NCBI GenBank assembly: GCA_050015075.1
Contig: JBEKCB010000011.1
Span: 1-64,000, forward strand
Source of the DNA: Candidatus Brocadiia bacterium
GTDB lineage: Bacteria; Planctomycetota; Brocadiia; CAIUPP01
Reading direction: 5' to 3'
Length of the DNA stretch: 64,000 nt
Positions 5,768 to 53,623 of the stretch are shown piece after piece; within the stretch, counting starts at the first letter, position 1, and each line of letters begins with the position of its first letter. The notes under the pieces were generated by a model. That model was not told the origin of the DNA and ran no database searches. It saw only the letters and a list, made by a program, of their open reading frames with translations. The position numbers were made by a program, and so were the translations under genes.

Positions 5768-5844
5768 TGGTGGGCGATACTGGGCTCGAACCAGTGACCT
5801 CCAGCTTGTCGAGCTGGCGCTCTAGCCAACTGAGCTAATCGCCC
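5768..5844 (-). tRNA. tRNA-Val (GAC)
   Basis: GGGCGAT acceptor stem, D arm AGCTCAGTTGGCTAGAGC, anticodon arm CCAGC-TCGACAA-GCTGG, GGTTCGAG T loop, encoded CCA. Confidence 0.97.
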
Positions 5845-47983: not shown

Positions 47984-48090
47984 ACGACCGACGATGGACG
48001 ATAGACGATGGAGGATGCCACCCGGTGCAGAGCAGCACATGCCCCGCGGCTGGCGATCATCCATCGTCTATCGTCCGTCGTCTATCGTCA
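47962..48090. repeat. Inverted heptamer arrays (GACGATG/A)n between convergent genes
   Basis: Same unit as 2913-3004 and 62741-62770. Confidence 0.88.
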
Positions 48091-49797
48091 CCTCGCGCCT
48101 TTCCCTTTCGGCGGCGTGGCGCGCGCGTTGAGCACGTTCGATTTCTCTAGCCATCCTCGCTGCGCCGTGGCGACGCCGTAGCGCATCAGTTGCAGGTCCT
48201 CGGTGCTGTGCGCGTCGGTGTTGATGACGACCTGGACGCCCAGTTCCTTCGCGCGGCGGCACGCCTGGTCGGTGAGGTCCAACCGCAGCGGGTTCGCGTT
48301 CAGCTCGATGGCCGTCCCATTCCGCGCTGCGGCCTTGAGCACCGCCTCGACGTCCACCGCGTACCCCTCGCGCCGGCCGAGCAGCCGGCCGGTCAAGTGG
48401 CCGATGCAGTCCACGTTCGGGTTGGCGACCGCCTTGAGAATCCGCTGCGTCATCTTCTCCTTGTCCTGCCGGAAGGCGCTGTGGACGGAGGCAATGACGA
48501 AATCGAGCTTGGCCAGCGCCGAGTCGGGCAGGTCGAGCGTGCCGTCGGCGCGGATATCCATCTCCGTCCCGGTCAGCAGCGTGATGTCGCGGAGTTTTTT
48601 CGCCGCGGCGCGCACCGCGGCGACCTCTTTCATGAGGCCGTCCACGTCGAGCCCGCCGAAGATCTTGAGCGCGCGTGTGTGGTCCGAGATCACGATGTAC
48701 TTGCGCCCGAGCGCCCGGGCGGCGCGCGCCATTTCCTCGATCGTGTTGCGCCCGTCGCTCCATTTCGTGTGGACGTGCAGGTCGCCGCGGATGTCGCCCA
48801 ACTCGATCAGCCTCGGCAGCGCGCCTTTCTGCGCGGCCTCGATTTCGCCGCGGTCCTCGCGCAGTTCGGGCGGGATCAGCGGCAGCTTCAGCGCGCGGTA
48901 AACTTCCTCTTCCGTCCGCCCGGCGATGCGCCGGTTGCCCTTGAAGATGCCGTATTCGCTCAACTTGAGCCCGCGCTCGCGCGCCATCGCGCGGAGGCGG
49001 ATGTTGTGCGCCTTCGAGCCGGTGAAGTACTGGAGCGCCGCGCCGAACGCCTCCGGCGGCACCACGCGCAGGTCCACCTGCACGCCGGACTCCATCACGA
49101 TGCTCGCCTTCGTGCCGCCCGCGCCGAGGATGCGCCGGACCTCGGGCAGTTTCGTGAATGCGCCGATGATCTTGCTGGAGGCGGCGCCCGCTCCCGCGGC
49201 GAGGATGTCAATATCGCCGATCGTCTCGCACATGCGCCTGAGACTTCCGGCGGCGAGCGCGCCCCGGACGCCGCGCTCTTCGAGCTGTGCGACGATTTTC
49301 TCGGCGAGCGGCAGCGCCTCGCCGAGCAGCATCCGCCGCGAACTGGCCTTGGCGAACTTGATCGCTCCCAGAAAGCCCGCCGCCTTTTTCGCGCCGATGC
49401 CCGGCACCCCGGCGAGCTTTCCGGTGCGCGCGGCCTCGGTGAATTCCCTGAGCGTGTTGATCCCGAGTTTCTCGTGGACCTGCGCCGCCGTCCGCGGCCC
49501 GACGCCGGGGATCTCCATCATCCGGAGAACGCCGGGCGGGACGGCTTTCAGGACCTCGGTGAGTTTCTCGATCTTGCCGGTCGTCAGCGCCTGGACGATT
49601 TTCTTCTCGATACTCTCGCCGATGCCGGGAAGTTCCTTCAGCCGATTCTCGCGAACGAGCGTCGCGACATCCTCCGTCTGGTCGCGCAAGACGCGCGCGG
49701 CCCTGCGGTAGGCGCTCAGCTTGAACGGGTTCTCGCCCTTGAATTCGAGAAGATTGGCCAGCGTTTCGAGCATTCCTGCGATTTCGTCGTTGCGCAT
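48088..49797 (-). CDS. polX: DNA polymerase/3'-5' exonuclease PolX (PHP domain)
   Basis: GENPFK..AY, AGSLRR..ETIGDIDIL, YFTGSKAHN, GDLHVHTKWSDG, NTDAH. Confidence 0.96.
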   Translation of the reverse strand: MRNDEIAGMLETLANLLEFKGENPFKLSAYRRAARVLRDQTEDVATLVRENRLKELPGIGESIEKKIVQALTTGKIEKLTEVLKAVPPGVLRMMEIPGVGPRTAAQVHEKLGINTLREFTEAARTGKLAGVPGIGAKKAAGFLGAIKFAKASSRRMLLGEALPLAEKIVAQLEERGVRGALAAGSLRRMCETIGDIDILAAGAGAASSKIIGAFTKLPEVRRILGAGGTKASIVMESGVQVDLRVVPPEAFGAALQYFTGSKAHNIRLRAMARERGLKLSEYGIFKGNRRIAGRTEEEVYRALKLPLIPPELREDRGEIEAAQKGALPRLIELGDIRGDLHVHTKWSDGRNTIEEMARAARALGRKYIVISDHTRALKIFGGLDVDGLMKEVAAVRAAAKKLRDITLLTGTEMDIRADGTLDLPDSALAKLDFVIASVHSAFRQDKEKMTQRILKAVANPNVDCIGHLTGRLLGRREGYAVDVEAVLKAAARNGTAIELNANPLRLDLTDQACRRAKELGVQVVINTDAHSTEDLQLMRYGVATAQRGWLEKSNVLNARATPPKGKGAR

Positions 49798-49928
49798 CGT
49801 GTGCCCCTGTCTTTCGTGACACCTGGATATCTTGCCCGCTGAAGCGCCCGCCCCGTTTCCATCGTACATCGGCCGCTCAAACGAAGCAAGGAAAGCAAAT
49901 GAATTGCCACATGCTGAGAATTTTCTTA

Positions 49929-49957
49929 TTGACGAAGGCGACGTATGTCGGTATAAT
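49929..49957 (+). promoter_or_regulatory. Near-consensus sigma70 promoter about 540 bp upstream of rny
   Basis: TTGACG-N17-TATAAT. Confidence 0.8.
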
Positions 49958-49989
49958 GCAAGAGCTTTTGCGGATTGTCAGTTCATAAC

Positions 49990-50460
49990 GCGGTCGGAGT
50001 GCGTGGCTGCGTGCGGGCTGGTCCGCGCAGGCGGGAGGAAGAGAGTCTGAGATCGTGTTCTCCCGTGGGCGAGTTTGAGCGTTTTGTGGAATCGGCAAAA
50101 TGAGCCTTCTGTCTGAACAGGTCGGCAGGCGGGCGTCGCCGGGGGTCGGCAAGGTCTCTGCGATCTTCCTCCTGATGGCGCTGGTCGGCCGGCTGATCGG
50201 ACATGTCGTGGCTCGGTTCGCTTTGAGCATTTGCTGCCTGATGCGCGCGTTCTGGACCGGGACTATCGGACCCAGGCTGTTCGGCGTGCGGCGTTTCGAC
50301 TCGTCTGCGCCGCGGACGGCCGGGCCGGCTTTGCAGCCACAGGCTGAAATCCTGGTTTACTTGCCGAACGCGTAAGCTCGGGGATTCCGCGCTCGCCTCG
50401 CACACCTCAAACCTCTTCTCTCGGGTTATCCCGTCTCCGCGCAGCCCCTGCGCCTCCGCC
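49990..50460 (+). ncRNA. Candidate large structured RNA or rny 5' leader (possibly an enlarged 6S-like RNA)
   Basis: Nested long-range helices 50005-13/50438-46, 50032-51/50405-23, 50067-74/50391-98, 50086-93/50383-90, 50122-29/50360-67, 50183-94/50318-30, many with G-U pairs. Confidence 0.55.
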
Positions 50461-50495
50461 CTGAACAGCACACTTGAGAAAGGCGGGAGGATTCG

Positions 50496-52088
50496 ATGTT
50501 GAATCTTGCGCAAGTGGTGCAGGCGACGGGCTTCTGGACGAGCGACAAGGTCCTGCTCCTGACGGGGCTGTGCGGCCTCCTCGCGGGCGGCATGGGGATT
50601 TATGCCATCAGTTGGCTCCGGGCCAGCGGCGCGGTCGTCCGCGCCCGCAAGGTCATTGCCGACGCCTCCGAGCAGGCCGAGCGCGTGAAGAAAGACGCCG
50701 AGGTCGCCGCGAAGGAGGAGTACATCAAGCGCCACGAGGCGCTCGAGTCGGAGGGAAACGCGCAGCGCGGGGAATTGCGCGAGACGGAGAAGCGCCTGAC
50801 CAAACGCGAAGACGGCCTTGAACACAAGCTCGACCTGCTGAACAAGAAGGAAAATTACGTCGAGACCCTCGAGCGGAGCGTGGCGGCCAAGCGCAAAGAG
50901 CTCAACGCCGAACAGGCCGAGCTCGAGCACTTGATGGAGCAGGAGAAGATCACGCTGCACAAGCTCTCCGAGCTCACGCGCGAAGAGGCGCAACAGCTCC
51001 TGATGCGCCGGCTCGAGGACGAGCTGCAGAAGGAATGCGCGGAGCTGGTGGCGCGCCGCATGGCCGAGGCGAAGGAGAACGTCGAGCGCGAGGCGCGCAA
51101 AATCCTGGGCATCGCCATCCAGCGCTACGCCGCCGACCACTGCGTCGAGAGCGTCGTGGCCGCCGTTGAACTTCCCAGCGACGACATGAAGGGCCGCATT
51201 ATCGGCCGCGAAGGCCGCAACATCCGCGCCTTCGAGAAAGCCACCGGCATGGACGTGGTCGTGGACGACACGCCCGGCGTGGTCGTCATCAGCGGCTTCG
51301 ACGGCGTCCGCCGCGAGATGGCCCGCCGCTCGATGGAAAAGCTCGTCCGCGACGGCCGCATCCATCCCGCTCGCATCGAGGAGGTCGTCGAGCAGTCCAA
51401 GAAGGAGATGGAGCAGGTCATCATGGACACCGGCAAGGAAGCCGCGTTCGACGTGGGCCTGCACAACCTCCACCCGCTCGAACTCGAATGCCTCGGCCGC
51501 CTGAAATTCCGCACCAGCTACGGGCAGAACCAACTTCAGCATTCGATGGAGGTCGCGCACCTGGCCGGCACGATGGCCGCCGAACTCGGCCTCGACATTC
51601 AGCTCGCCAAGCGCTGCGGCCTGCTCCATGACATCGGCAAATCCGTGGACCAGGAAGTCGAAGGCTCGCACCCGCAGCTCGGCGCCGACATCGCCCGCAA
51701 ATGCGGCGAGCCGACCGAGGTCGTCGAGTCCATCGCCGCCCATCACGACGACATCACCGCCGCGAACATCTTTGTGGTGTTGGTGAGCGCGGCGGACGCC
51801 ATTTCCGCGGCGCGTCCTGGCGCGCGGCGCGAGACGCTGGAGAAGTACGTCAAGCGCCTGCAGCGGCTCGAGGAGATCGCCGGCGCCTTCCCGGGAGTCG
51901 AGGTCGCCTACGCCATCCGCGCCGGCCGCGAGGTGCGCGTGATCGTCACCGCCGACCGCGTGGATGAGAAGATGTCCGCCAAGATGTGCCGCGACATCGC
52001 CAAGGAGATCGAGGCGGAAATGACGTATCCGGGCGAGGTCAAGGTGACATTGATCCGCGAGAGCCGGTTCGTCGAAGTGGCCCATTAA
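50496..52088 (+). CDS. rny: Ribonuclease Y
   Basis: N-terminal TM, coiled coil, KH ([17 protein letters not shown]), HD (LLHDIGK), [14 protein letters not shown]. Confidence 0.98.
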
Positions 52089-52100
52089 TGTCGTTAATGG

Positions 52101-52248
52101 ACCACCAAGACACCTAGGCACCAAGGACGACGACTGATATTGCAACCACGGAACACACTGAAGACACTGAAGCCGTTTAGGAAAGTCATTCGGTGTGCTC
52201 CGTGTATTCCGTGGTGGGAGCCGTTGTCTTTTTGTGCCTTCTGGTGGT
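52101..52248. repeat. Nested inverted tandem repeats of two unit types between convergent rny and dnaJ
   Basis: Outer CACCAAG-type arms 52101-25/52228-48; inner CACGGAA/CACTGAA-type arms 52144-71/52189-216. Confidence 0.75.
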
Positions 52249-52260
52249 GAGCAAGCCGTG

Positions 52261-53388
52261 CTATTCCGCCGGAATTCCCGCCGAGCGCGCGAACTCCCGC
52301 AGAAGCTTTTTCTGCTCCTCCGTGAGGTTCGTCGGCGTCGTGACGCGGATCGTGACGTAATGGTCGCCGGCGCGCCCGTCGGCGGTGGTCACGCCGCGGC
52401 CGCGCAGCCGCAGGGTCGTCCCCGGCTGCGTCCCCGCAGGAATGCGCAGCGCCACGTCGCCGTTGATCGTCGGCACATGCACCCGCGCGCCGAGCGCCGC
52501 CTGGACGGCGTTGATGGTCGCCCCGCCGTAGATGTCGTCTCCCTTCCGCTTGAACTGCGGATGCTCCTCGACGCGCACTTCCACCAGCAGGTCGCCGCTC
52601 GGCCCGCCGTCGCGCCCGGGCTGGCCTTGCCGCGCGAGGCGGATTTTCTGCCCGTCGCGCACGCCGCGCGGGATCTTCAGGCGGAACCGGCGCGTGGCCT
52701 GGATCTCGCCGGTCCCGTTGCACTTCGAGCAGGGCTTGGCGATCACCTCGCCGCGGCCGTAGCAACGCGGGCAGGGCCGGCTGAACGCGAACGCGCCCTG
52801 GACGGCCTGCACGTTTCCGGCGCCGTGGCATACCGGGCAGACCTGCGAGCGCGTGCCCGGCTCGCTGCCGCTGCCGCCGCAGCGGTCGCAGGAGAATACG
52901 CTCGGGATCGCGATCTCCGTCTCGCCGCCGTGCGCGGCCATTTCGAACGGCACCTGCAGCGCCACCTCGATGTCCTCGCCTTGCTGCGGCCCTCGGCGCC
53001 GGCTGCGGCCGCCGAACGGCGCCTCGCGCCGGAAGAACTGGCTGAAGATATCGCCCAGGTCGCCCGACTCGGCGCCGGAGAAGTATTCCTCGGCCTGCGG
53101 CGCGCTGCGCGGGCGGCCGCCCTGGCGGCTGCGGAATGAATCCCAGAACTCGCTCCCGGCGAACCCCTTCGCGCGCGCCTCGCCGAACTGGTCGTACTGC
53201 GCGCGCTTGTCCTTGTCGGTCAGCACGTTGTGCGCCTCGTTGATCTCCTTGAACCGCTGCTCGGCGGTCTTTGAGCCCTTGTTCCGGTCGGGGTGATATT
53301 GTTTCGCCAGGTGGCGGAAGGCCTTCTTGATCTCCTCCTCGCTCGCCGTGCGCGGGACGCCGAGAATCTCGTAGTAATCTTTTGCCAT
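52261..53388 (-). CDS. dnaJ: Molecular chaperone DnaJ
   Basis: [12 protein letters not shown], four CxxCxGxG repeats, C-terminal GTQPG domain. Confidence 0.95.
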
Positions 53389-53623
53389 AACTCGGCATTG
53401 TAAGCCATGCGCGCGGCGTCTTCAACTCACGCGCGACGGCGGTGCGATATTCGGTGCAGTCGTGGCCGGCGAGGCAATGTCATCGCCGGCCTGATAGCCA
53501 TGTGAAGGGAACGCAGAAGTCCGCCTGATTTGCGTAGGAAAGTTCTACACAGGCGGAGGTTGCGCGAATGCAGCTGTGCGCTTAACTACCGTCAGTGCAG
53601 TATGATAAGATAATCGAGCCAGA

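Follow-up and report, generated by a model that had tools for sequence, protein, structure and literature searches.

What lies in the half-kilobase between a near-consensus promoter and rny, the gene of ribonuclease (RNase) Y, is the question raised by the 64,000-nt window analysed here, which covers positions 1 to 64,000 (forward strand) of contig JBEKCB010000011.1 of a Candidatus Brocadiia bacterium (assembly GCA_050015075.1) and is GC-rich. The original prediction described the interval as a structured RNA of about 470 nt with many helices and offered three readings, namely an oversized 6S-like RNA, an autoregulatory leader of rny, or a new large class of non-coding RNA (ncRNA). Of these, the leader fits best; the autoregulation that the reading includes is something we infer. 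The leader is a genuine and conserved feature. It is best placed among the regulatory leaders of RNase genes, as a long, new variant with an upstream open reading frame (uORF) whose frame is conserved. That the interval acts in cis, as a regulatory leader of the rny mRNA with a translated uORF, and is not a separate RNA gene, is in our estimate about evenly balanced.

The downstream end of the interval is set by rny, an open reading frame (ORF) at 50496-52088 on the + strand, which encodes an RNase Y of 530 amino acids with the Pfam domains RNase_Y_N (2.6e-41), KH_1 and HD (1.4e-18). At the upstream end, the promoter named in the original prediction is confirmed as a sigma-70-type site at 49929-49957 (+), consisting of TTGACG (49929-49934), a 17-nt spacer and TATAAT (49952-49957) with 11 of 12 matches; its −10 box ends 538 nt before the rny ATG at 50496. 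In a scan of 49700-50600, two promoter-like sites were found, one per strand, against 0.1 expected from shuffles. The site on the minus strand is weak (49953-49981, CTGACA-N17-CATTAT, 9 of 12 matches), overlaps the −10 box of rny and points to a divergent polymerase gene. Across the genome, 196 sites with at least 11 of 12 matches occur in 9.29 million strand-bases, and about 0.02 per kb are expected by chance in this genome. All seven close relatives have both hexamers unchanged, whereas divergence is 15-45% in the 130 nt that precede the −35 box. Transcription would start at about 49964, as placed from the −10 box, which gives a predicted leader of about 532 nt (49964-50495, +).

Neither a terminator-like site nor a second + strand promoter was found between this promoter and rny in the same scan, whose sole + strand terminator-like site, 49792-49804, lies upstream of the promoter. 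Parts of the stretch are present in eight RNA runs. Four of the eight, from four studies, were mapped, and their cover is biased because the runs were chosen with words mostly from the leader. Contigs from the RNA libraries of all four mapped runs cover about 49998-50418; none covers 49824-49985, which is no evidence either way. One metatranscriptome contig bridges 50275-50962, from the leader into rny. It suggests, weakly, that the RNase gene carries the leader as its 5′ untranslated region (5′ UTR) within one transcript, as such contigs attest to continuity and to presence in RNA libraries but say nothing of ends or levels, and do not prove a single transcript. Contigs start at 49998/49999 in two studies, and several end at 50413-50418; these positions were considered as processing sites and are not relied on, since contigs do not reveal ends and the 3′ ends fall at the onset of a variable stretch.

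A protein-guided scan of metagenome contigs left 80 loci, seven of which (L031-L037) encode an RNase Y 88-99% identical to that of the window. Two of their leaders (L031 and L034) are identical, and one locus (L032) holds only 166 nt upstream of rny. The alignment used below (A1) comprises seven distinct leaders, including that of a same-genus genome (L111, RNase Y 98% identical), with a mean identity of 93%. Across it, the segment 49965-50257 differs by 1.7-7.5% and the segment 50258-50495 by 7-20%, compared with a synonymous divergence of 0.12-0.29 in rny. The first 290 or so transcribed bases therefore change 2-5 times more slowly than the synonymous sites of rny, which indicates a constraint at the nucleotide level. 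Within them, only 0-13 of the 158 bases at 50100-50257 differ among the relatives. The leader sequence is present as a single copy in the genome. Of the conservation and covariation that the original prediction looked to in the rny upstream regions of relatives, the former was found; the latter did not reach significance, as described below.

The RNA of 49965-50495 on the + strand has a minimum free energy (MFE) of −249.7 kcal/mol and a z score of −2.57, and 0 of 100 shuffles are as stable. The minus strand gives a z score of +0.71, with 75 of 100 shuffles as good. The choice of the + strand as the RNA, which had been made from its many G-U pairs, is thus borne out. The RNAalifold consensus of the seven leaders contains 178 pairs, with 97.7% of the alignment cells paired. 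Four of the six long-range helices proposed by eye were recovered by folding. Three of them (50032-51/50405-23, 50067-74/50391-98 and 50086-93/50383-90) are present in both the single-sequence MFE structure and the seven-sequence consensus; the fourth, 50005-13/50438-46, appears in the MFE structure only, and the same bases fold locally in the consensus. The two inner helices, 50122-29/50360-67 and 50183-94/50318-30, are absent from the computed folds, in which the interior forms two separate long hairpins (50094-50222 and 50237-50382) instead. The T-loop-like loop that had been pointed out near 50295 falls in the hairpin 50287-94/50307-14; it is variable among close relatives and nothing tRNA-like matches there, so that the T-loop or tRNA-like reading was rejected.

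In the predicted consensus fold, the leader begins with a 5′-terminal domain of three stacked helices at 49964-50032 (49964-75/50021-32, 49979-84/50015-20 and 49988-96/50004-12), in which 98-100% of the alignment cells are paired. The first 70 nt are GC-rich and predicted to be paired, and in the ensemble fold the first 10 nt are unpaired with a mean probability of 0.13. A long-range stalk follows, whose purine-rich 5′ strand at 50033-50092 pairs with a pyrimidine-rich 3′ strand at 50384-50422 over three helices (50033-51/50406-22, 50065-81/50390-405 and 50087-92/50384-89). The 5′ strand holds AGGCGGGAGGA, an 11-nt copy of the rny ribosome-binding region, and the 3′ strand begins 9 nt past the stop codon of the uORF. 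The stalk encloses hairpin domain A (50094-50222, consensus helices 7-10), which contains the uORF start codon and is the slowest-evolving part, and hairpin domain B (50237-50382), which contains the 3′ half of the uORF and its stop codon. In domain B only the outer helices are conserved, and these (helices 12-13, 50237-62/50350-82) hardly vary. At the end of the leader, a 3′ hairpin at 50426-50491 pairs the rny ribosome-binding region, GGCGGGAGGA at 50483-50492, with upstream pyrimidines; this consensus helix 18 is kept in seven of seven relatives, with 96% of the cells paired. In an ensemble fold that included 40 nt of rny, an alternative partner of the Shine-Dalgarno region, CCUCCGCCC at 50454-50462, has a pairing probability of about 0.95. 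The bases 50433-50446 have two mutually exclusive pairings, each of which is compatible with all observed substitutions.

No known RNA family accounts for this structure. The search used Rfam 15, with 4227 models that include rne5, the riboswitches, OLE, GOLLD, HEARO and ROOL. At the gathering threshold, the only match in the whole window is a tRNA at 5771-5844. At E values up to 10, no family was found in 49800-50600, where two matches of 14-15 bits are noise, and no Rfam family was found between the promoter and rny in the upstream regions of 19 relatives. The 6S model describes a rod of about 185 nt with a central bubble, and RF00013 has no match in 49800-50600 even at an E value up to 10, so that an oversized 6S-like RNA is not supported. 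The strongest 6S candidate in the genome is on another contig, a full-length match to RF00013 at C6:95401-95550 (+, locus L192) with 31.8 bits against a cut-off of 46.4 and an E value of 2e-4; it is probably the divergent 6S RNA of this organism.

The middle of the proposed RNA is filled by an ORF that the original prediction missed. It runs from the ATG at 50100 to a TAA ending at 50375 on the + strand, has 91 codons and is open, without any indel, in seven of seven DNA relatives. All single-base indels lie outside it, at 50042, 50083, 50086, 50096 and 50383 in the DNA alignment and at 50037 and 50376 in the RNA-library contigs; a one-base loss and a one-base gain at 50301/50305 cancel each other. 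An exhaustive HMMER search of 1.84 billion representatives gave two clusters for the peptide. Variants in a database clustered at 90% identity number 25, with identities of 67-100%; a further clade (P0003-P0005) is 43-47% identical to the uORF product. Of the 28 peptide variants, 27 are full length, and the three indel events among them all comprise whole codons; the exception, P0020, ends 14 residues early. Since only open frames enter peptide databases, frame conservation in that sample is biased.

These observations would also be expected if the ORF were an ordinary small membrane protein gene, co-transcribed with rny and perhaps encoding a partner of the membrane-bound RNase Y, with the RNA structure incidental. 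Gene callers in several sources do list it as a hypothetical protein. The AlphaFold2 model of the product shows one long hydrophobic helix (residues 14-55), with predicted local distance difference test (pLDDT) scores of 88-94 over residues 21-50, and a disordered tail (residues 58-91). However, the substitutions do not behave as those of a protein gene. The ratio of non-synonymous to synonymous differences per site (pN/pS) is 0.38-0.88, the variable columns number 19, 21 and 27 by codon position, and the 20 synonymous and 53 non-synonymous codon variants correspond to the neutral ratio. Neither a dN/dS well below 1 nor a third-position excess, the marks of purifying selection at the amino-acid level, was found in the uORF. 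In codons 1-53, pS is 0.02-0.13, compared with 0.12-0.29 in rny, and pN is low too; the conservation of synonymous sites there indicates that the constraint acts on nucleotides. In codons 54-82, pS is 0.16-0.31, equal to that of rny, and pN/pS is 0.4-1.2. Codons 83-91 lie in an RNA helix and are nearly invariant, including their synonymous sites; they encode the conserved C-terminus ILVYLPNA, which appears as VYLPDA in the distant clade. The product belongs to no Pfam family, and a look-alike search of the Atlas gave no usable match. We therefore regard the small-protein gene as fairly unlikely. The pattern can be read, from the sequences compared, as one in which the frame of the uORF matters and most of its peptide sequence does not, with the 5′ half conserved as nucleic acid.

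The arrangement recurs beyond the genus without recognizable sequence similarity. The family comprises only four species genomes. When the leader was compared with the upstream regions of 30 class-level loci using blastn and nhmmer, only the same-genus locus matched, with an E value of 0.87 for locus L004 at a corresponding position. Neither tblastn nor a hidden Markov model of the 28 peptides found a leader ORF in these regions beyond the genus. This profile misses even the leader ORFs of L003, L004 and L005, whose RNase Y is 64-80% identical to that of the window (best E 0.42), which is a further point against a conserved small protein. Nevertheless, in L003 and L004, with RNase Y about 80% identical, the layout is that of the window. 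In the order window, L003 and L004, a TTGACG-N17/18-TATAAT promoter precedes leaders of 532, 534 and 503 nt; ATG-initiated ORFs of 91, 91 and 89 codons begin 136, 135 and 129 nt downstream of the predicted start; and rny follows after spacers of 120, 123 and 104 nt. The family layout thus consists of a consensus promoter, a purine-rich 5′ UTR of about 130 nt, an ORF of about 90 codons, a pyrimidine-rich spacer of about 110 nt that is predicted to pair with the 5′ UTR, and rny. The ORFs in L003 and L004, of the same length and place, are each hydrophobic near residues 19-31, as a small membrane protein would also have it. L005, from the same order, has TTGACA-N18-TATAAT, a leader of about 600 nt and a 103-codon ORF at a different place. 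The length of such leader ORFs is by itself a weak argument; the coincidence of their position is the stronger point.

The predicted duplexes between 5′ UTR and spacer have energies of −104, −98, −77 and −73 kcal/mol in four lineages, with z scores of −1.9 to −2.9 and 1-11 of 200 shuffles as good; the duplex of the window beats its shuffles. The leader fold of L004 has a z score of −3.36. A covariance model of the 5′ hairpin domain matches L004 at most 2 nt from its predicted start (18.7 bits, E about 0.006), and the alignment of the two domains shows shared words and some pair-preserving changes. Chance matches of 15-18 bits to this model occur in the window, so that the weight of the L004 match rests on its position.

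At the level of the class, 30 loci were surveyed, 28 of which are usable, as two have no upstream sequence. A promoter with at least 11 of 12 matches lies on the rny strand 480-750 nt upstream in 13 of the 28, and in 10 further loci, all from low-GC genomes of the anammox type, TTGACT-N17-TAxxAT is conserved at −602 to −690, which brings the total with a strong promoter upstream of rny to 23. In one pair of loci (L006 and L008), the leader segment from −470 to −353 is 96% identical, compared with 73% over the initial 150 nt of rny, and the changes in their leader ORF, 17 non-synonymous and 3 synonymous, again argue against selection for a protein product. In the anammox rny leaders (L009-L020, 330-0 nt upstream), blocks are conserved and ORFs are not. 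A long leader behind a strong promoter is thus ancient for rny in this class, its content being specific to each lineage.

Some features of the class-level upstream regions are recorded in their own right. The anammox leaders contain a AUGGAUCU block whose complement, an AGAUCC block, follows about 150 nt further on; the AUGGAUCU block therefore looks like a helix strand. They also contain pyrimidine tracts, two or three in number (AUCCUUC, UUCUUCC), whose sequences complement the GGAGGAU ribosome-binding region. An RNA family could be built from these blocks. A conserved small protein was considered for the recurrent "MDLKEK" pseudo-peptides that precede anammox rny and was rejected, as the ORF is cut short in L010, L011, L014 and L015 and the AUGGAUCU block has the look of a helix strand. 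On the opposite strand, 12 anammox-type loci (L009, L011-L020 and L022) have a perfect TTGACA-N17-TATAAT (12 of 12 matches) that points away from rny, at a distance of about 570-780 nt upstream of the gene; in L006 and L008, such a promoter stands back to back with that of rny. Upstream of the rny promoter in other families, a group II intron domain occurs in L028 (327-477, +), and the 23S-5S end of an rRNA operon occurs in L027 (492-607, +) and L030 (3897-4527, −).

If the leader acts in cis on rny with a translated uORF, the following course may be proposed. Transcription would start near 49964 from the near-consensus promoter, and the RNA would open with the stable hairpin domain of 49964-50032. 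The purine-rich segment 50033-50092 would then pair over its three helices with the pyrimidine-rich segment 50384-50422, so that the uORF would be looped out of a long stalk, and the last hairpin, 50426-50491, would tie up the rny ribosome-binding site. In this state the leader would set the synthesis of RNase Y after transcription. RNase Y itself, or another RNase, might cut the leader when in excess, as RNase E does on rne and RNase Y on the 5′ UTR of B. subtilis rny. Ribosomes translating the uORF to its fixed stop codon could melt the stalk and shift which pyrimidine tract pairs with the rny ribosome-binding site, by which the output of RNase Y would be tied to translation. Cleavage, translation of the uORF, or both would thus alter the competition among the purine and pyrimidine tracts. 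A bolder version, in which such leaders of 500-650 nt form an undescribed element throughout the class and the rny ribosome-binding site is freed or not according to where the ribosome stands on the uORF, or through a nascent chain that stalls and bears a membrane-targeted helix, and not according to the peptide sequence, seems to us decidedly unlikely. If it were true, the leader would be a sensor coupling the global capacity for mRNA decay to the status of translation or of membrane insertion.

Several results weigh against a structured regulatory leader with a translated uORF, and the first group concerns the fold. Covariation is not significant in the seven-sequence alignment, which is shallow and where 43-483 of 500 shuffles reach the observed measures. 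Only one pair of the consensus has changes on both sides. When the MFE structure of the window is mapped on the alignment, 93.0% of the cells are paired and three double changes occur, no better than with slid partners (0-4). In favour of the fold, 37 of 63 single-sided substitutions keep the pairs of the consensus fold compared with 29.1 expected (P 0.0014), a comparison that is biased because the fold was chosen on the same alignment; with the single-sequence MFE structure, which is unbiased in this respect, 39 of 85 keep them compared with 34.3 expected (P 0.05). Against it, of the non-synonymous changes inferred from 27 further peptide variants, 27 of 72 keep predicted ORF-internal pairs compared with 26.0 expected (P 0.40), and the pair is broken by four of five double changes that occur together; all of these are in the inner part of hairpin B. 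The inner helices of hairpin B (50266-50347) are consequently not supported, the outer architecture of the leader fold is plausible, and covariation is unproven.

The second group concerns the uORF, the relatives and the transcript. The codon-usage score of the uORF, 0.072, is ambiguous, at the 12th percentile of long-ORF windows and reached by 5.3% of spurious ORFs; it is also a point against a small-protein gene. No Shine-Dalgarno-like motif is visible in the sequence upstream of its ATG. ATG-initiated ORFs as long as those in the leaders arise in 10-18% of dinucleotide-shuffled leaders. The energy of the stalk owes much to composition, purine against pyrimidine, and non-cognate pairs score nearly as well. 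The leader fold of L003 has a z score of only −0.91, with 20 of 100 shuffles as good, and the covariance-model score of L004 is no higher than three chance matches (15-18 bits) in the window. Transcript ends cannot be read from the contigs, and DNA may be present in RNA libraries. Finally, the rny leader of B. subtilis is cut mainly in its first 50 nt, which are AU-rich and largely single-stranded according to the passages cited (PMC10303841), whereas the corresponding part here is GC-rich and predicted to be paired.

A very unlikely alternative is that the product of the uORF is a nascent chain with a regulatory role, of the SecM/MifM type. Its conserved C-terminal motif would stall the ribosome as it reaches the end of the uORF, and the stalled ribosome would remodel the leader and alter the translation of rny, with the hydrophobic N-terminal part engaging the membrane insertion machinery. 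SecM, MifM, VemP and ApcA/ApdA/ApdP are examples of such monitoring-substrate uORFs (PMC7897499, PMC10987492). As in the monitoring substrates of 80-200 codons described in the cited part of PMC7897499, the predicted product would have an N-terminal hydrophobic segment, a variable hydrophilic middle and a conserved C-terminus, and the downstream ribosome-binding site is predicted to be paired. With 91 residues, a hydrophobic helix in the N-terminal half, a variable hydrophilic tail of about 40 residues and a C-terminus that is conserved while residues 54-82 drift, it may show four of the five features searched for in that work. The tail, estimated at about 36-40 residues, is to be compared with the at least 40 residues used there. 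However, the first feature is absent, as the downstream gene is rny and not a sec or yidC gene. In addition, the conserved C-terminal codons are explained equally well at the RNA level by their invariant synonymous sites and their place in a helix, the stop codon lies about 105 nt from the rny ribosome-binding site, the C-termini of the L003 and L004 ORFs differ, and P0020 lacks the whole terminal segment.

A free-standing, stable, trans-acting ncRNA of about 420-470 nt, with rny transcribed from another start or by read-through, is highly improbable. The common cover of the four RNA runs, with contig starts shared by two studies and several nearby 3′ ends, is what such an RNA would give, as is the strong fold on the + strand only; lacking an Rfam family, it would be new. 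However, no terminator-like site or second promoter separates the element from rny, one contig bridges the two, and in the relatives the element always stands in front of rny. The choice of runs was biased to the leader, and several of the contig ends mark the start of the most variable stretch, at which the relatives stop aligning. The new large ncRNA class put forward in the original prediction is not upheld as a free-standing RNA, in view of the 91-codon ORF with its kept frame and of covariation that is not significant. A ligand- or protein-sensing, riboswitch-like element, in which pyrimidine tracts alternately pair with the rny ribosome-binding site, has the slightest chance, as the 11-nt copy of the ribosome-binding region in the 5′ UTR, the several pyrimidine tracts and the two exclusive pairings of 50433-50446 are met by the lack of any riboswitch family match in Rfam, of an identified conserved unpaired pocket and of ligand-related genes pointing to a signal, and by a shared word that is weak elsewhere, with 4 nt in L003 and 6 nt in L005.

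The neighbourhood of the leader can be described briefly. A gene of a PolX-type DNA polymerase with a PHP domain lies upstream of rny on the opposite strand, about 700 nt apart. It is provisionally placed at 48088-49797 (−) within an ORF of 48088-49869 that matches the Pfam domains DNA_pol_B_thumb, HHH_8 and PHP; the HHH_8 match from residue 25 fits a start near 49797. On the 3′ side of rny, two long ORFs overlap, one at 52195-53139 (+) with 314 amino acids and no Pfam match, the other at 52094-53425 (−) with 443 amino acids. Elsewhere in the window, a GC-rich (76-78%) palindromic hairpin at 9977-10057 matches the 5′-domain model, to which it is unrelated, on both strands at 15-18 bits; a bidirectional terminator or a large inverted repeat is the probable explanation.

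In the many bacteria without RNase E, it is RNase Y that initiates the breakdown of most mRNAs, and control of its own level is, to our knowledge, known only for B. subtilis. A cis-acting leader of the kind preferred here would, if true, be a second and different solution to RNase Y control, with a leader three times longer, in a distant uncultured phylum, and featuring a uORF that is conserved in frame, free in sequence and bracketed by a stalk. The class-wide occurrence of consensus-grade promoters 0.5-0.7 kb upstream of rny also provides a defined set of sequences for an RNA family, and the pattern includes anammox bacteria, which can be grown in enrichment. A full-text literature search gave, among the matches listed, no paper on the leaders of rny in Planctomycetota or on any uORF preceding this gene.

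Two known leaders invite comparison. The 5′ UTR of E. coli rne (Rfam rne5, RF00040) is a long multi-hairpin leader of the gene of the main decay-initiating endoribonuclease, through which feedback control is exerted, and we know of no long uORF in it. The enzyme, RNase E, is unrelated to RNase Y, and the leader of the window has no match to rne5. In B. subtilis, rny has a 164-nt 5′ UTR that is cleaved by RNase Y for autoregulation, and this leader is proposed to couple the synthesis of RNase Y to the demand for it and to ribosome occupancy (PMC10303841). It is much shorter than the leader of about 532 nt described here, no uORF is described for it in the passages cited (PMC10303841), and the two leaders have no sequence similarity. 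In common they have their place between a promoter of the sigma-A type and rny, and a ribosome-binding site that can be structured in B. subtilis (PMC10303841) and is predicted to be paired here.

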